IMG/VR virus record: IMGVR_UViG_3300043652_000015
Span: 1-57,431 of that record
DNA length: 57,431 bases
Source: a virus
Lineage: Duplodnaviria > Caudoviricetes
Strand: one strand, 5' to 3'
Below the pieces are notes generated by a model. That model was not told where the DNA came from and searched no databases. It saw only the letters and a program-made list of their open reading frames with translations. Position numbers and translations under genes: made by a program. How positions within the stretch are numbered: position 1 is the stretch's first letter; each line of letters begins with the position of its first letter. Positions 2,271 to 19,466 of the stretch are shown here, piece after piece.

Positions 2271-3724
2271 CGACTGCCTATGACCCGCAGGCTCCTGAGC
2301 TGCTGGAGTTGCTGTCCCTGTCGGACGACGAGTTGGCGATCATCAGTGTGCTGCGGCAGCAGTTGCTGTCGGAGCGGTGGCACCTGGAGTTGAAGGACGC
2401 GTACTTCAACGGCGAGCAGTTGGTGCGCGACCTGGGGATCAGCATCCCGCCGCAGTTGAAGGGGCTGCATACGGTCATCGGGTGGCCGCGGATCGGCGTG
2501 GAGGCGTTGGAGCAGCGCCTGGACTTGGATGCGTTCCGGTGGGCGGACGGGTCGGATTCTTCGGATCTGATGGCGGTGACGTCGGCGAATGACTTGTTCG
2601 ATGAGTCGTCGTTGGCGCATACGGATGCGCTGATCTACGGCAGGTCGCTGATCACGGTGGGGTCGGGTGACTGCGGCGGTGATGACTGCCCGGCGCTGGT
2701 GAGTATCGAGTCGCCGTTGGACATGGCGGTGCTGTGGGATGCGCGGTCGCGGACGGTGCTGGCTGCTCTGCGGGAGTGCCGCCCGGATCTGTTGGCGCCG
2801 GAGTTGGTCGACGACCGGATGATCGTGCTGTACCTGCCGGACCAGACCATTCAGGCGGTCCCGGCGGACTCGGGTGTCGGCTGGATCGTCGTGGACCGGG
2901 ACATGCACGGCCTCGGCGTGGTGCCGGTGGTGCGGATGTCGAACCGGCAGCGTGCGGGTGACCGTGTGGGCCGGTCGGAGATCACCGCCGATGTCATGTC
3001 GATCACGGATGCGGCGTGCCGCAGGTTGATGGGCATCGAGGTCGCGGCGGAGTTCTTCGGCGCGCCGCAACGCTACATCTTGGGTGCGACCGAGGAGGCG
3101 TTCCAGGACGCGGAGGGCAACGCCAAGTCGGCGTGGGAGACGTATATCGGGCGGATGCTGGCGCTGGAGCGGGACGAGGACGGGAACATCCCGGAGGTCG
3201 GCCAGTTCGCGGCGCATGACCCGTCCGGCCAGACGAAGATCATCGACTTGTATGCCCGGATCATGGCGACGCAGCTTGGTCTGCCGCCGCACATGCTGGG
3301 CTACACCTCGGACAACCCGGCGTCGGCGGACGCGATCCGTTCCTCCGAAGGCATGCTGATCAAGAAGGCCGAGCGGCGTCAGCGCAGGTTCGGTGCGTCG
3401 TGGGTGCAGGCGATGCGCTTGGCACTGTGGGTGCAGAACGGTGAGCCGCCCGACAAGCAGAAGGTCATCGAGCCGATCTGGCGCAACGCCGCCACCCCGA
3501 CCGTCGCGGCGTCCACGGATGCCGCGGTGAAGCTCGTGACGGCGAACATCCTCCCGGCAGAGTCCGACATCACGCTGCAGATGGTGGGGCTGACGCAGTC
3601 GCAGATCATGCAGGTGCAGGCTGACCGGAAGCGCCTGGGTGGCCAGCAGGCTGCGGCGGCGATTCTGGCGCGGCTGGATGGTCTTCAGCAGATAGGCAAC
3701 GTTGATGCCGCAGCCGGTAACTGA
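2267..3724 (+). CDS. Portal protein (SPP1 Gp6-like)
   Basis: 485 aa after TerL with ATGA overlap; GWPRIGVEALEQRL, GRSEIT, EFFGAPQRYILG, NPASADAI motifs. Confidence 0.93.
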   Translation: MTTAYDPQAPELLELLSLSDDELAIISVLRQQLLSERWHLELKDAYFNGEQLVRDLGISIPPQLKGLHTVIGWPRIGVEALEQRLDLDAFRWADGSDSSDLMAVTSANDLFDESSLAHTDALIYGRSLITVGSGDCGGDDCPALVSIESPLDMAVLWDARSRTVLAALRECRPDLLAPELVDDRMIVLYLPDQTIQAVPADSGVGWIVVDRDMHGLGVVPVVRMSNRQRAGDRVGRSEITADVMSITDAACRRLMGIEVAAEFFGAPQRYILGATEEAFQDAEGNAKSAWETYIGRMLALERDEDGNIPEVGQFAAHDPSGQTKIIDLYARIMATQLGLPPHMLGYTSDNPASADAIRSSEGMLIKKAERRQRRFGASWVQAMRLALWVQNGEPPDKQKVIEPIWRNAATPTVAASTDAAVKLVTANILPAESDITLQMVGLTQSQIMQVQADRKRLGGQQAAAAILARLDGLQQIGNVDAAAGN

Positions 3725-5606
3725 CGGGTCGGCAAGTGCCGCGCAGGCGCGTGCAGCGCAGGCGGGGCTGACGAAGCTCCTGGCGAGGGATATGCAGGCG
3801 CTCCGGAAGCTGATCGTGCCTTCGCGGATGCAGCAGACGGTGCCGCAGTGGATCCTCGCCGTCCGGGCCCTGGTGGGCCAGTACAGCAAGGCGTCGTCGT
3901 CGCTGGCGGCGGACTACTACGACGCGGAACGGGTGGCTTCGCGGGTGACGGGCCGGTTCACTGTGCCGTTGCTGGATCCGCCGTCGGATGAGCAGATCGA
4001 GGCGTCGCTGCGGTGGGCCACGAAGGACCTGTGGCCCCGTGATCCGGATGATCCGGCGACGACTCCGGTGCAGAAGCTGCCGTTGGAGCAGCGCCTGGAC
4101 GCGGCGGAGGTCAAGTCGGAGGCGGTGGCGCAGAAGCTGGTGACCGACACCGGTCGCGGAACGGTGCGCAGAGCCGTCCAGAGCGACCGGACGGCCGTCG
4201 GCTACGCGCGGGCCGCAGCGCTGGGGGCCTGCGCCTTCTGCCGACTCATGGCCAGCCGAGGCATGGTTTTCAAGTCGGCCGAATCGGCAGGACGGAACGC
4301 CAATAGCCAGTTCAGCGGCAACGACAGCACCGTGAAGTTCCACGACAACTGCGTCCCGGCCGGGACGCTAGTCGATGGGCCTGCCGCTGAAGTTGGCTAC
4401 CGACGGTACTACGAGGGGGAAATGCTGGTCATTGGCACTGCCGCTGGCCATGAGCTTTCCATCACCCCGAATCACCCGGTACTGACGGACCGAGGCTGGG
4501 TTCCGGCTGGCCTGCTGAGCCCAGGTGATCACGTACTCAGCAGCCTCGATGCACAAGGGAGCTCTCTTCAGGTCCCAGATGAAGAGCATGTGCCATCCCG
4601 CATCGAGGATGTATGGGGTGCGCTGAGCGTGCTCGGTCTTGTAGGCGTGCCAGTTGCCCCCGAGGACTTCCACGGCGACGGGGCCGACGGCGAAGTCCAT
4701 GTTGTACGAGCCGACGGCCTTCTGTGGCGTCACTCGGATGCCTGGGCCCTGGAGGTACTTGCCGAACTGGAACTCTCGCTCGCTTGCGTGCGCGAGAGTC
4801 TGTTCACGCTGCTGGGCTCGTCGGAAGAGCTCGCTGGCCGGGGCCTTGCGACCACGAACGGCATCGTGCGCGGCCTCTGTGAGTTGGAGTCGCTCCTCCT
4901 CGCTGAGCTGGGCAAGCCGGTTGGTCTGAGCGTCGCTGCGCCCGCGTATTGGCGCCTCGGCTTCGACGAGTACGCGGCGGATCACGCCGCGTGCGATCTC
5001 GAAGCGCGCGGCGAGAGCGAGTTCGCTCTCGCCTTGAAGGTAGGCAGCGACGATTTCAGCGGAGGGGAGATCGGCCTTCTGGCTGCGGGCGCTGATCCCC
5101 CGTTTGCTCAGCTCCCTGCACAGCACCGAGGTGCTGACGCCGCATTCGGCGTAGACCTCAGCGCCGTTCTTGCCTGCCAGATAGAGCGCGACCGCCCGGT
5201 CGAGCTTGGCGGTGGTAGTGCGGTAGGGGCGCCTCGGTTCGATCCCCCGGTCCCTTACGGCTCGGTGGATGGTCCCGGCGCTTATGCCGAGTTGGGCCGA
5301 GACCTGGGCGAACGTCTTGCCGGTCGCGTACAGCGCGACCGCATCGTCGAGGTCCGCCGGATTGATTTTGTTGGCGATGTCTACAACCTCCAGACGGCTC
5401 AAGGCTGGTACCGAGCCGATGGGGTAATTGTATCAAATTGCCACTGCCAATTGATCCCGGTCTTCAAGGGTCAGAAGTTCAACCTGTCCCCGCAGGCCGC
5501 AGAGTGGGCCCGCATCTACGAGGAGTACGCCGCCCCGTACTCGGGTGACCAGTTGAACCGCTTCCGGCAGGCCTTGGCCGCTCACGGGCACACGCCCGTC
5601 CTCTGA
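3705..5606 (+). CDS. MuF-like minor head / capsid maturation protein, interrupted by an intein
   Basis: Between portal and scaffold; GYAR..ACAFCRLMASRG; the H-D-N-/C-H-C motif is restored after removing 4350-5438 (spliced product ~270 aa). Confidence 0.85.
   Translation: MPQPVTDGSASAAQARAAQAGLTKLLARDMQALRKLIVPSRMQQTVPQWILAVRALVGQYSKASSSLAADYYDAERVASRVTGRFTVPLLDPPSDEQIEASLRWATKDLWPRDPDDPATTPVQKLPLEQRLDAAEVKSEAVAQKLVTDTGRGTVRRAVQSDRTAVGYARAAALGACAFCRLMASRGMVFKSAESAGRNANSQFSGNDSTVKFHDNCVPAGTLVDGPAAEVGYRRYYEGEMLVIGTAAGHELSITPNHPVLTDRGWVPAGLLSPGDHVLSSLDAQGSSLQVPDEEHVPSRIEDVWGALSVLGLVGVPVAPEDFHGDGADGEVHVVRADGLLWRHSDAWALEVLAELELSLACVRESLFTLLGSSEELAGRGLATTNGIVRGLCELESLLLAELGKPVGLSVAAPAYWRLGFDEYAADHAACDLEARGESEFALALKVGSDDFSGGEIGLLAAGADPPFAQLPAQHRGADAAFGVDLSAVLACQIERDRPVELGGGSAVGAPRFDPPVPYGSVDGPGAYAELGRDLGERLAGRVQRDRIVEVRRIDFVGDVYNLQTAQGWYRADGVIVSNCHCQLIPVFKGQKFNLSPQAAEWARIYEEYAAPYSGDQLNRFRQALAAHGHTPVL
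4368..5378 (-). CDS. Antisense, intein-nested HTH-repeat + Vsr/DUF559-like endonuclease (putative homing endonuclease); start uncertain (ATC 5378 or TTG 5402)
   Basis: Three HTH-like repeats (AVALYATGKTFAQVSAQLGISAGTIHRAV; AVALYLAGKNGAEVYAECGVSTSVL; IVAAYLQGESELALAARFEIARGVIRRVL), then ASERE..QKAVGSYNMDFAVGPVAVEVLGGNWH..R..ILDAGWHMLFIW. Confidence 0.85.
   Translation of the reverse strand: MANKINPADLDDAVALYATGKTFAQVSAQLGISAGTIHRAVRDRGIEPRRPYRTTTAKLDRAVALYLAGKNGAEVYAECGVSTSVLCRELSKRGISARSQKADLPSAEIVAAYLQGESELALAARFEIARGVIRRVLVEAEAPIRGRSDAQTNRLAQLSEEERLQLTEAAHDAVRGRKAPASELFRRAQQREQTLAHASEREFQFGKYLQGPGIRVTPQKAVGSYNMDFAVGPVAVEVLGGNWHAYKTEHAQRTPYILDAGWHMLFIWDLKRAPLCIEAAEYVITWAQQASRNPASVRQYRVIRGDGKLMASGSANDQHFPLVVPSVANFSGRPID
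5427..5435 (-). promoter_or_regulatory. Putative extended -10 promoter (TGATACAAT) for the antisense nuclease
   Basis: Reverse complement of ATTGTATCA; AT-rich codons GTA ATT GTA TCA AAT in a high-GC genome; about 35 nt upstream of a minus-strand GGAGG. Confidence 0.55.
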
Positions 5607-5674
5607 CTTTCTGACCCCTTTCCCTGGCCGCCCTGGTGGCGGCCTTTTCCATGCCCCAGGAGGGCCGCTTCGCC

Positions 5675-6322
5675 ATGCCCGAGAACACCGAGACCGACAC
5701 GCAGACCGAGACCGAGGACACCACCACCACCGAGGTGGAGGAGACGGCCGAGGAGCAGGGCGCGGAGGTTGCCGAGTCCGCTGAGCAGGCCCAGGAGGCC
5801 GAGGAGCAGACGGAGAAGCCGTTCGACCGCGCCCAGGCCGAGGCGAAGATCCGCAAGGCGAACTCGGAGGCCCAGAACCTCCGCAAGCGCCTGAAGGAGC
5901 TGGAGCCGAAGGCCGCCGAGCTGCAGCGCATCAAGGACGCCGAGAAGTCCGACACGGAGCGCCTGAGCGACCAGTTGACGGCCGCGAACGAGCGCATCGC
6001 GAAGACCCGCACGGCCCTGGCGAAGAGCCAGGTCCAGAAGCTCGCCGGGGCCACGTTCGCGGACCCGGAGGACGCGGTCACCGCCCTGGATCTCGACTCC
6101 TACATCGACGACGAGGGCGAGATCGACGAGGCCGCGATCGAGGCGGACCTGACGGACCTCCTCGCACGAAAGCCGCACTGGGCCCGTGCCCAGCCTGTGC
6201 AGCCCCAGGAGGGCGCGCGGCGGCCCGCACCGGATCGCACTCAGGCGTCCGGCGCCAACAAGACCCGACCCGCCAACCCGGCTGACGAGTTCTCCGGGTG
6301 GCTGAAGTCGCAGCTCAAGTAG
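5675..6322 (+). CDS. Capsid scaffolding protein
   Basis: Acidic N-terminus, coiled coil KIRKANSEAQNLRKRLKE, C-terminal PAPDRTQAS; precedes capsid. Confidence 0.85.
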   Translation: MPENTETDTQTETEDTTTTEVEETAEEQGAEVAESAEQAQEAEEQTEKPFDRAQAEAKIRKANSEAQNLRKRLKELEPKAAELQRIKDAEKSDTERLSDQLTAANERIAKTRTALAKSQVQKLAGATFADPEDAVTALDLDSYIDDEGEIDEAAIEADLTDLLARKPHWARAQPVQPQEGARRPAPDRTQASGANKTRPANPADEFSGWLKSQLK

Positions 6323-6342
6323 CTGCCGAAAGCGAGTACACC

Positions 6343-7296
6343 GTGGCTACTGCCGCAATCAAGCTGTCCGACCTCAACGCATCACTCCTGCCGCCGAACA
6401 TCACGGCCCCGATCTTCGAGAAGTCCGTGGAGCAGTCCGCGGTGATGTCGCTGGCCCGGCCGGCGCCGCTGTCGATCGACGCGACGACGGTCATCCCGAT
6501 CCCGATGGACGTCCCGACGGCGGACTGGGTCGGCTCGGCCCAGCGGAAGCCGCTGAGCTCGGGTGGTATCGACATCAAGTCGATGTCGGCGAAGAAGCTC
6601 GCCGTGCTGATCCCGGTCTCGGAAGAGGTCGCGATGACGAACGCGGCGGGCCTGTACGCGCAGCTGCAGCGCGACCTGCCGACCGCGTTCGCCCGGGCGT
6701 TCGACATGGCGGCGATCCACGGCAAGACCATGCGCGGGGCGACCGGCCCGTTCGGTGACTACCTGGCGATGACGACGAACACCATCGCCCTGGGTACCGC
6801 CAGCCAGTCGACGGGTGGGATCTGGAAGGACTTCGTCGCCGGGATGGCGGAGGTCGTCGACGACGACTGGGACTACACCGGCACCGTCGCCGACCACCGG
6901 CTGAAGCCGCTGCTGCTCCAGGCCACGGACACCACGGGTCGGCCGATCCTGGTCGACACCACGATCCCGGGCACGCAGATGGCCGCAGCTGGCACGCTGA
7001 TCGGCGAGCCGCTGGCGTACTCCCGCAGCGTGTCGGGCAAGCAGCGGCGTCAGTCGTCGAGCACCGACTCGGGTCTGCGGGCGGTGGGCGGGGACTGGTC
7101 GCAGGCGGCCTACGGCGTCGGCATGGACATCACCGTGCGGATCAGCAAGGAAGCCACCTACATCGACGAGGACGGCGGCGTCCACAGCGCGTTCCAGGAG
7201 AACCTGGTGCTGCTGCTCGCGGAGGCGTACTACGGGTACGTGCAGGGTGACGCGCAGGCGTTCGTGACCTACACCGGCACTCCGAGCGGGTCCTGA
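6343..7296 (+). CDS. Major capsid protein (HK97 fold)
   Basis: GTG 6343; KKLAVLIPVSEE, AFARAFDMAAIHG, DTTGRPIL, GDWSQ, FQENLVLLLAE. Confidence 0.93.
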   Translation: MATAAIKLSDLNASLLPPNITAPIFEKSVEQSAVMSLARPAPLSIDATTVIPIPMDVPTADWVGSAQRKPLSSGGIDIKSMSAKKLAVLIPVSEEVAMTNAAGLYAQLQRDLPTAFARAFDMAAIHGKTMRGATGPFGDYLAMTTNTIALGTASQSTGGIWKDFVAGMAEVVDDDWDYTGTVADHRLKPLLLQATDTTGRPILVDTTIPGTQMAAAGTLIGEPLAYSRSVSGKQRRQSSSTDSGLRAVGGDWSQAAYGVGMDITVRISKEATYIDEDGGVHSAFQENLVLLLAEAYYGYVQGDAQAFVTYTGTPSGS

Positions 7297-17434: not shown

Positions 17435-18579
17435 TGCTGGCGCACGCCTACTCGTTGGCGGCGCTGCGGCAGGCGATCCGGCGCCCGGTGGCGGCGGACT
17501 GGTCCAACGACGGCGGCGACACCTGGTCTCCGCTGCGGGTGTCGACGGGGACGGTGACGGCCGACCGCACCGCGGACGTGCGGTACGCGGCGAGCCTGAC
17601 GGTGGTCGGCGCCCAGTACGGGGGCCGGGCGGGCATCAACAGCATCAGCACGCTGGTGCGGATCCGGCAGGGCATCCAGGTGCCCCGCAGCGACGTCGAA
17701 TGGATCCCCGCGGGGACGTACACGGTCGACAAGCCCTCCCGCACCCGCACCGGTGTGACGATGAGCCTCCTCGGCCTGGAGGACGTCATCCGCGGCGCCG
17801 CGTTCCCTGCGCCTCGGACGGTGGGCCCGGACTCGGCGCGCTCCGTCGTCGGGACCCTGGTGGGCGAGGCCCTGCCGACGACACCGATCGCCTGGCAGCC
17901 GGGCATCGACCCGGGGACTAGCATCCCGGGGTTCGTCGTGGACGCCGACCGCTGGGCCGCACTGTCGTCGGGCACAGACACGGCCGGTGTCTCCACCGGG
18001 GTCGCGCAGGCCCTGGCCGGTGAGATCTGGGCGGACGCGCGCGGCATCATCGTCGTGGGCCCCGTCCCGACGCTCGACGACCCTGTGGTGTGGATGGCCC
18101 CCTACGGCACCGCCGTGGTGTCCGTGTCGCAGGACCAGTCCTCCGAGGGCGTCTACAACCTGTGGTCGGTCACCGGTGACACCGGGTCGGGTGCGGCCAC
18201 CGTCGGCCCGGCCTACGCCTGGGACTCCGACCCCAACTCGTTGACCTACGCCGGACCCGACCCCGTCGGCGACCCCCTCGCCCCGCAGCGCCTGGGCCTG
18301 CCCTGGGTGCGGGTGCGGACCAACCGCGTCTCCTCGGCGCTGGCCACCAGCCAGCAGCAGGCCGACGCCATGGCCCGGGCCGGCCTGGCCGGTTCGCTGG
18401 GTATCCAGGCGTCGCTGTCCATGGCGGCGGTGTGCCACCCGGCGCTGGAGCCCGGTGACGTCATCGCGGTCGAGGTCACCCCGGGCGAGTGGGAGACCCA
18501 CATCATCGACTCCCTGTCGTTCACGCTCGGTTCCGCGTCGATGACCTGCACGACCCGGACAACGGCCAGGAGGCTGTGA
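17434..18579 (+). CDS. Minor tail protein (baseplate hub-like)
   Basis: GTG overlapping upstream TAG; GTVTADRTADVR, EWIPAGTY, HPALEPGDVI. Confidence 0.7.
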   Translation: MLAHAYSLAALRQAIRRPVAADWSNDGGDTWSPLRVSTGTVTADRTADVRYAASLTVVGAQYGGRAGINSISTLVRIRQGIQVPRSDVEWIPAGTYTVDKPSRTRTGVTMSLLGLEDVIRGAAFPAPRTVGPDSARSVVGTLVGEALPTTPIAWQPGIDPGTSIPGFVVDADRWAALSSGTDTAGVSTGVAQALAGEIWADARGIIVVGPVPTLDDPVVWMAPYGTAVVSVSQDQSSEGVYNLWSVTGDTGSGAATVGPAYAWDSDPNSLTYAGPDPVGDPLAPQRLGLPWVRVRTNRVSSALATSQQQADAMARAGLAGSLGIQASLSMAAVCHPALEPGDVIAVEVTPGEWETHIIDSLSFTLGSASMTCTTRTTARRL

Positions 18580-19466
18580 TGGCGGACATCGCCGACCTGC
18601 TCGGCAAGGACCTCGCCCGGGCCGCGGCAGCGTCTTCGGGTGGTTTGACGACGGTCGGGGCGCAGGTCGTGGACCTGACGGACGACGGCGGCGTGAACAT
18701 CATGCTCGCTGGGGCGCTGCTGCTGGATGTGCCGTGCGCGGACTCCTACCGCGACCGTGTGGCGGGTGACTGGGTTGCGGTGCGCCAGGGGTCGCAGCCG
18801 GTGGTGCTGTGGCGCCTGGGTGCGGACCCGGCCACTGGTGCGGCGGCGGATCAGGCTGTGTCTGCGCTCACCTGGGGTACTGCGGCGCCGGGTGCGGGGT
18901 GGCAGTCCGTCACCCAATTGTATGTGCGGGCGGATGCGTCGGGTGTGGGCCAGTTGTACGCACAGCTCGGCACGGTGACTAACCCGTCGCCGCCGGATCC
19001 GGGCCCGGGCAGTGCCACGGTGGGCGCCAATGATGCCGGTTCGTGGCGGGGCGGGTCCCCGGACACGTACCACTCGAACCCGACGCAGGGCGACTGGACG
19101 GGTGGCGGTGACCTGCGGGGCGGCTGGTTCTACGGCACGAAGATCGCGTCGGCGTGCTCGGGGCGCACGGTCGCGTCAATGTCGGTCACGGTGGCGCGCC
19201 GCCGGGGTAGCGGTGTCAACGCCAAGCGCCCGGTGCATTTCTACCTCCACAACTTCACCGCCGCACCCGGTGGCCAGTTGACGCTCGGCGACGGCCCCCA
19301 GGAGCTGATCTCGCTGTCCGTCGGCGCGCAGGGCACGGCGGCGCTTCCGGCTTCGTGGCGCACGGCACTGGCAGCGGGTACCGCCCGGGGCTTGGCGATC
19401 GCGGCCAGCGGCTCGGCGGACTACGCCTCCTTCACCGGCGGCACCATCAAGATCACTTTCTCGTAG
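18579..19466 (+). CDS. Minor tail protein
   Basis: ATG after AGGAGG; Gly/Trp-rich, QGDW..GGWFYG. Confidence 0.7.
   Translation: MADIADLLGKDLARAAAASSGGLTTVGAQVVDLTDDGGVNIMLAGALLLDVPCADSYRDRVAGDWVAVRQGSQPVVLWRLGADPATGAAADQAVSALTWGTAAPGAGWQSVTQLYVRADASGVGQLYAQLGTVTNPSPPDPGPGSATVGANDAGSWRGGSPDTYHSNPTQGDWTGGGDLRGGWFYGTKIASACSGRTVASMSVTVARRRGSGVNAKRPVHFYLHNFTAAPGGQLTLGDGPQELISLSVGAQGTAALPASWRTALAAGTARGLAIAASGSADYASFTGGTIKITFS

Follow-up and report, generated by a model that had tools for sequence, protein, structure and literature searches.

How is a gene expressed when it lies inside an intein, on the strand opposite to the intein's own reading frame? The question is raised by the virus record IMGVR_UViG_3300043652_000015, analyzed here over its full 57,431 bases (the window; 69% guanine plus cytosine, GC), in which a MuF/VG15-like minor capsid gene carries an intein and a predicted homing-type nuclease is encoded codon-on-codon on the opposite strand of that intein. 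The recent description of such elements left open how an antisense nuclease is expressed against a late structural operon. As the nuclease gene faces against this operon, it needs expression signals of its own, and the only room for them within the element would be the ~60 nucleotides (nt) from the nuclease start to the intein C-terminus, that is, splicing blocks F and G. A preliminary description of this DNA had proposed that a promoter was written into block G, the terminal splice motif. Our analysis suggests that this is probably the case: read on the minus strand, the block G codons would form a TG-extended -10 promoter serving the nuclease of the mobile intein (coordinates in Table 1).

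An antisense -10 motif in the block G codons

The last codons of the intein, which read ADGVIVSN/CHCQ across the junction in frame with the open reading frame (ORF) 3702-5606, give TGATACAAT on the minus strand between 5435 and 5427, that is, TG-A-TACAAT. The near-consensus extended -10 announced for this place is therefore present in the letters. The extended -10 promoter of sigma-70-family holoenzymes (TGnTATAAT) has its TG one base upstream of the hexamer and needs no -35 element. The predicted hexamer shares with such promoters T at -12, A at -11 and T at -7, the TG at -15/-14, and a workable distance upstream of a Shine-Dalgarno (SD) sequence and start. Unlike a typical extended -10, the predicted element lies wholly inside the coding sequence of the opposite strand. 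Its TG is supplied by the penultimate intein codon, which is Ser TCA instead of the usual His, as had been pointed out; the same antisense triplet, TGA, doubles as the stop codon bounding the nuclease frame on its upstream side. The preliminary description had seen no clear -35, and we found no two-hexamer sigma-70-type site in 3500-6500. A TTGGCA in the antisense of the C-extein was considered as a -35 and rejected, being merely 12 nt from the hexamer. Because an extended -10 needs no -35, the predicted promoter would travel with the intein, and its position inside the intein boundary agrees with the earlier proposal.

All five terminal intein codons end in A or T, and the bin 5325-5474 has a GC of 0.56, lower than the 0.63-0.71 of most bins around it. 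With a third-position GC of 0.87 in the N-extein and 0.91 in the C-extein, these codons are indeed atypical for the genome. One reading of this is chance or composition: in a foreign intein of lower GC, an Ile/Val-rich strand, once reversed, would resemble TAnnnT. The low local GC and a mild third-position A/T excess in the intein interior fit such an origin, as does the finding that TGNTACAAT, which occurs once in the window over both strands (0.11 expected), was present at least once in 11 of 100 shuffled windows. The looser TGNTANNNT has this single site in 57 kb, compared with 10.74 +/- 2.86 expected from dinucleotide shuffles; the genome looks depleted in extended -10 words, as judged by shuffles that ignore codon structure. 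Only 49 TANNNT hexamers are present in the whole window, both strands counted. Two hexamers, both on the minus strand, match TATAAT at five or more of six positions with T1, A2 and T6, namely 5432-5427 and 18922-18917. The second, also TACAAT, is probably a chance occurrence: it lies inside the plus-strand ORF 18489-19466, has no TG and has no obvious minus-strand gene start nearby.

Synonymous-site conservation among homologues had been proposed as a test, and it was found, GC-rich synonyms not being freely used. For this comparison 121 junctions were anchored on the terminal Asn. One locus identical to the window (L003) and one with too short a flank (L006) were dropped, and loci with at least 90% identity over 150 nt were collapsed, which gave 100 non-redundant loci, the window included. 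The synonymous codons of the last 8 intein residues were resampled per locus in 2000 runs, following each locus's own extein codon usage smoothed with that of its GC bin. An in-frame TANNNT stood on the block G antisense in 80/100 loci, against 10.9 +/- 2.9 expected and at most 22 in any resampling run. A match of at least 5/6 to TATAAT was found in 63/100 (6.7 expected) and the TG-extended motif in 35/100 (1.3 expected). By GC bin, TANNNT was present in 10/13, 19/25, 19/23 and, in the highest bin, 32 of 39 loci, compared with 4.1, 3.7, 1.6 and 1.5 expected. The excess was local: in the 62 loci with a GC of at least 0.63, codon -3 had A as its third base at a frequency of 0.61 and codon -4 at 0.39, where 0.05 was expected for each, whereas Asn(-1) and extein codons +1 to +4 matched expected usage. 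The motif was also kept by most members in 26 of 37 clusters formed at 50% or more nuclease identity. Taken with the 80 loci and the restriction of the excess to two codons, this makes an origin by chance or composition extremely unlikely. The codon excess in the homologues thus argues that block G codon choice is constrained at the DNA level as a -10 element requires, and favors the proposal that promoter function shaped block G.

The position of the motif points the same way. When TANNNT was scanned without regard to frame, 34 loci had it at +6 from the junction and 43 at +9, two peaks over a mean of 1.5 per position. In Ser-Asn inteins the hexamer falls on residues -3/-4 (+6) and the TG comes from Ser TCA; in Thr-His-Asn inteins it falls on -4/-5 (+9), is often a perfect TGTTATAAT, and the TG comes from Thr ACA, so that the registers of the Ser-Asn and His-Asn classes differ by 3 nt. 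Escherichia coli phage Snoke carries TGCTATAAT in block G. In phage Aaphi23 (L132, 1100-1260), block G reads SVFVSN, the antisense of which is TACAAA and no -10, and a perfect TGTTATAAT is found out of frame, 22 nt deeper in the intein and 28 nt before an ATG. A motif that moves yet keeps its sequence argues for function rather than inheritance.

A role on the sense strand would also leave a mark on these codons. GTA, ATA, TCA, ACA, CTA and TTA are rare, making up 0.2-5% of their families in the top GC bin, and, clustered at the intein end, could slow the ribosome and so give the Hint domain time to fold ahead of the C-extein; the likeness to a -10 would then be a by-product. We consider this very improbable as the base used is specifically A, Val(-3) being GTA in 33 of the 37 xVSN loci and GTT in 1. 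Leu at the deciding position is likewise CTA or TTA, for example in L112, L114, L034 and L116 (64-69% GC). The excess is moreover seen in loci of the low-GC bin (10/13 against 4.1), for which such codons are nothing unusual, and the motif changes register between classes and leaves the frame altogether in Aaphi23. Canonical inteins do not share it. As a control, the 30 best C-terminal intein matches (TIGR01443) in 151 Mycobacteriaceae genomes gave 29 distinct block G sequences, of which 2 had TANNNT, with a third-base A frequency of 0.10 at codons -3 and -4; TIGR01443 was used because a PF14890 search for control inteins was positive in 0 of 3 host genomes.

For the antisense -10, a difference between the two classes would follow from the genetic code. 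His codons, whose antisense is GTG or ATG, would be unable to give TGn in the register of the Ser-Asn inteins, so that Ser TCA would have been taken up in one large class, and the class retaining His would instead have shifted the hexamer by one codon and recruited Thr ACA. In the sequences compared, the tie between this TG and the change from His to Ser is purely correlative.

From the predicted start site to the nuclease

The family would write its expression signals into synonymous positions of the block F and G codons. Read on the antisense, block G (Ile/Val-Val/Ile followed by Ser or Thr) would give the TG-extended -10, the block F Asn-Leu the GGAGG SD sequence, and the block F His codon (CAT or CAC) an ATG or GTG start. 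The host holoenzyme with sigma-70 or sigma-A would initiate ~7 nt past the hexamer, near 5420 on the minus strand, giving a leader of ~41 nt to the ancestral start position, or of 17 nt to the TTG at 5402. From the sequence we infer the use of the site by RNA polymerase, the start position and the role of the transcript in nuclease expression.

The spacing is in line with this layout. In the window the hexamer lies 35 nt from GGAGG, the distance given in the preliminary description, and 48 nt from the ancestral start position. Across the family, an SD-like word precedes the aligned start codon by 4-16 nt in 74/100 loci, and the aligned nuclease start is ATG in 54, GTG in 26 and TTG in 4 of 100. 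In the 68 loci having both the motif and a start codon, the hexamer stands 42-48 nt from the aligned start, and in 64 of them a purine occupies the 7th position past the hexamer. The predicted leader RNA (5420-5350) is no more stably folded than its shuffled versions (z = -0.67, with 50/200 of these folding equally well), and we therefore propose no hairpin sequestering the SD sequence.

A working promoter at this place might have as its main product an antisense RNA modulating the minor-capsid messenger RNA (mRNA), and not the messenger of the nuclease. By geometry, any transcript would be fully complementary to ~1 kb of the MuF mRNA. The conserved SD sequence (74/100) and start (84/100) at a fixed 42-48 nt, followed by a conserved ORF of 250-340 amino acids, have the layout of an mRNA, which makes a mainly antisense RNA role quite improbable.

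This copy departs from its relatives at one point. The window is among the 16 loci without a canonical start, the aligned position reading ATC because the intein has Asp where homologues have His. The -10 could thus be real for the family and a relic here, the motif persisting by inertia after the start had changed; the only canonical start upstream, the TTG at 5402, has no SD sequence ahead of it. We consider this unlikely, since the rest of the ORF is undamaged from end to end and shares 74% identity with its nearest relative, and since an independent sample contains contigs (runs X2 and X3), 95-99% alike, with the same ATC and motif. Initiation that is weak, SD-less or at a near-cognate codon is possible as well. 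The nuclease of this copy may be weakly translated or starting to decay.

Several observations weigh against a promoter in block G. The ATC at the ancestral start means that the promoter may here serve a poorly translated or decaying gene. An in-frame TANNNT is missing from 20 of the 100 non-redundant loci, yet their nuclease ORF is intact and of similar length (median 284 amino acids, against 292.5 with the motif), so that the motif and ORF integrity do not vary together. The closest relative, L052, has TACGAC, with no T at -7, and no clear motif is seen in Gordonia phage Fosterous, a named phage that is not among the 100 loci. The TG is variable and present in about a third of the loci: Ser(-2) in the 39 Ser-Asn loci is encoded by TCA 17, TCT 8, TCG 6, TCC 6 and AGC 2 times, and Thr(-3) by ACA 16, ACG 6, ACC 6 and ACT 4 times. 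Since Ile and Val fix A-11 and T-7, only 1-2 bases per hexamer are free evidence, and the homology of the loci makes their counts partly dependent on one another. Third positions throughout the intein interior are mildly enriched in A/T (~0.3 against 0.15), and the Mycobacteriaceae control inteins represent a small number of families and are poorer in Ile.

Having weighed these points, we hold the antisense of block G to be a likely promoter of the nuclease. We are more doubtful of a fuller picture, possible but tentative, in which splice blocks F and G together make up a complete portable cassette (-10, SD and start) and the demand for a promoter reshaped the active-site motif from His to Ser.

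The intein, its nuclease and their distribution

The ORF 3702-5606 is interrupted by a mobile intein, predicted to splice from the following features. Pfam VG15 (PF25310) matches residues 12-217 of the ORF product (E 1.4e-44), and phage homologues of the host gene carry the annotations MuF-like, head morphogenesis or minor capsid. Two long ORFs that precede it are presumed, by position alone, to be terminase and portal. The intein begins CVPAGT..., its Cys1 immediately after ...FHDN, and ends ...VYNLQTAQGWYRADGVIVSN. Its block B reads I-T39-P-N-H42-P, with the Thr-x-x-His motif of this block. The C-terminal Asn (AAT) is followed by Cys at +1, as in class 1 inteins, and the terminal Asn is present in 121/121 aligned junctions. 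The penultimate residue is Ser, not the His of class 1; in the 100 non-redundant loci this residue is His in 58, Ser in 39 and another in 3. Inteins without the penultimate His exist, so that Ser at this position does not exclude membership. Curated intein profiles stayed below their cut-offs (PF14890, 18.8 against 35.8 bits; TIGR01445, 21.7 against 24.5). The homologue in phage Snoke was labelled intein-containing by its depositors, and the intein frame is open and continuous with the host gene here and stop-free in 100/100 loci.

A freshwater-metagenome contig of 151 nt (run X4) matches the C-extein at 5438-5560 without mismatch, from the last intein base on; its other 28 letters fall outside the stretch compared. 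It could be an intein-less allele, the comparison covering the C-extein side only. Just 3' of the minor-capsid stop, at 5626-5644 on the plus strand, stands a GC-rich hairpin with a run of T after it, resembling a terminator.

Table 1. Coordinates of the minor capsid gene, its intein and the features read on the opposite strand
Feature	Position	Strand	Remarks
MuF/VG15-like minor capsid (head morphogenesis) gene with intein	3702..5606	+	ORF, translation, Pfam VG15
N-extein	3702-4349	+	part of minor capsid gene
C-extein	5439-5603	+	part of minor capsid gene
Stop of minor capsid gene	5604-5606	+	
Intein, 363 amino acids	4350-5438	+	Cys1 TGC 4350-4352; block B T39-P-N-H42; end ...VIVSN
Block G codons GTA ATT GTA TCA AAT (V-I-V-S-N)	5424..5438	+	GTA 5424-26, ATT 5427-29, GTA 5430-32, TCA 5433-35, AAT 5436-38
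+1 Cys (TGC) of C-extein	5439..5441	+	Cys at +1 in 62/62 high-GC loci
TG of predicted extended -10	5434..5435	-	antisense of Ser(-2) TCA
Predicted -10 hexamer TACAAT	5427..5432	-	antisense of Ile(-4) ATT and Val(-3) GTA
Predicted transcript start	5419..5421	-	inferred; A at 5420, 7th base after hexamer
TTG, first canonical start of open nuclease frame	5400..5402	-	no SD ahead
Shine-Dalgarno GGAGG	5387..5391	-	antisense of block F Asn-Leu-Gln (AAC CTC CAG)
ATC at homologues' nuclease start position	5376..5378	-	antisense of Asp GAT; homologues His CAT/CAC
Nuclease ORF, 344 amino acids	4368..5402	-	repeated helix-turn-helix modules, then Vsr/DUF559-like core; codon-on-codon antisense to intein

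The nuclease ORF lies wholly within the intein bounds, and its stop, TAG, is the antisense of Leu CTA at 4368-4370. The codon-position GC signature flips inside the intein, where plus position 1 (minus position 3) reaches 0.77-0.85, and the minus-strand ORF is therefore a real gene. Helix-turn-helix domains were matched above Pfam cut-offs (HTH_23, 2.5e-8; HTH_58, 5.1e-7), and MTES_1575 (REase_MTES_1575, 5.1e-4) and DUF559 were weak matches, both below theirs. A protein search returned 138 homologues at E<=1e-10, and a Protein Data Bank profile search matched 3hrl (E 0.0016). The structure model (predicted local distance difference test 77.3) was matched by Foldseek to 3r3p (probability 0.99, template-modelling (TM) score by target 0.59, E 0.033) and to 1vsr (probability 0.95, TM by target 0.55); the predicted nuclease fold thus resembles the homing endonuclease I-Bth0305I (3r3p) and Vsr (1vsr). 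Nuclease residues ~251-344 run through the antisense of Hint blocks A and B (window 4350-4650, plus strand). The invariant residues Y308, V310 and G313 mirror intein block B (T-P-N-H-P-V), so part of the C-terminal conservation of the nuclease may be imposed by the intein.

The architecture is widespread. A tblastn search with the nuclease found 127 phage records, in every one of which the nuclease match and the MuF gene matched by the host protein were on opposite strands; the hosts include Salmonella (63), Gordonia (15), Pseudomonas (15), Klebsiella (8) and Escherichia (6). The family also reaches Vibrio and Aggregatibacter phages and prophages or metagenome-assembled genomes (MAGs) of many phyla. 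By pattern scanning, bacterial genomes and MAGs from many phyla gave 48 loci and viral contigs 482, of which 80 were kept. Opposite the nuclease, the N-terminal Hint piece was found in 128/129 loci and the C-terminal piece in 120/129; L051 had neither, and 8 others had no C-terminal match, several through a contig end. In 100/100 non-redundant loci the intein and nuclease frames run codon-on-codon on opposite strands, both free of stops, and the nuclease ORF takes in blocks A, B and F and spans a median 93-96% of the intein length. The closest relative found, L052, has 74% nuclease identity. A scan of viral contigs for close relatives gave a single identical copy (L003), and a megablast of the gene against phage records gave zero matches.

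Known systems and implications

Anti-sense VSR-like homing-endonuclease inteins have been described in minor capsid proteins of actinobacteriophages (Gosselin, Arsenault and Gogarten, bioRxiv 10.1101/2025.01.02.630785). As far as the available text goes, that system has the same type of host protein and an intein with an antisense Vsr-like nuclease ORF, and the structural matches agree on Vsr (HHpred to 3R3P there, Foldseek to 3r3p/1vsr here). The antisense ORFs are reported there as typically outside the splicing domain, unlike the present nuclease ORF, which covers blocks A, B and F, and the family compared here extends far beyond actinophages. The word "promoter" occurs 0 times in the main text of that preprint, which describes no expression signals. 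In the cyanobacterial DnaX intein a LAGLIDADG nuclease is anti-sense or out of frame (Gorbalenya 1998, cited in 10.1101/2025.01.02.630785; 10.64898/2026.09.14.751524). The nuclease there also occupies another frame or strand than the splicing domain, and an SD sequence before it is mentioned, but the nuclease is of a different family and the host gene a different one; the available text of the DnaX preprint (10.64898/2026.09.14.751524) uses neither "promoter" nor "transcription".

A related nuclease fold is found in the free-standing Vsr-like (EDxHD) nucleases between split inteins of fractured genes (Dassa et al. 2009, PMC2677866) and in I-Bth0305I (Taylor et al. 2011, PMC3239194). In the portions of PMC2677866 available, the nucleases are preceded by conserved nucleotide signals: the word TATAAATA, which resembles a late promoter, and hairpins that cover the ribosome site. 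Those nucleases lie on the same strand between two separate genes, with signals that are non-coding or 3'-terminal, whereas here the intein is contiguous, the nuclease antisense, the predicted signals within block F and G codons and the leader without special folding. The literature searched, with preprint supplements and Gorbalenya 1998 outside its scope, describes no promoter inside an intein splice motif. An antisense Vsr-like nuclease in minor-capsid inteins is thus known already; a -10, SD and start within splice-block codons are undescribed in this literature.

For annotation, the results argue for calling the antisense ORF of the MuF gene as a gene in its own right in many Salmonella, Escherichia, Pseudomonas and actinobacterial phages. 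If the -10, SD and start are indeed held in the splice codons, the element would be a self-contained mobile unit of ~1.1 kb in which nearly every base serves two or three codes, which would explain its activity after moves between phages of hosts from 38% to 74% GC. It would also be a clear example of regulatory constraint on synonymous sites and, under the more tentative reading of the change from His to Ser, a case of a promoter on one strand having reshaped an active-site motif on the other.

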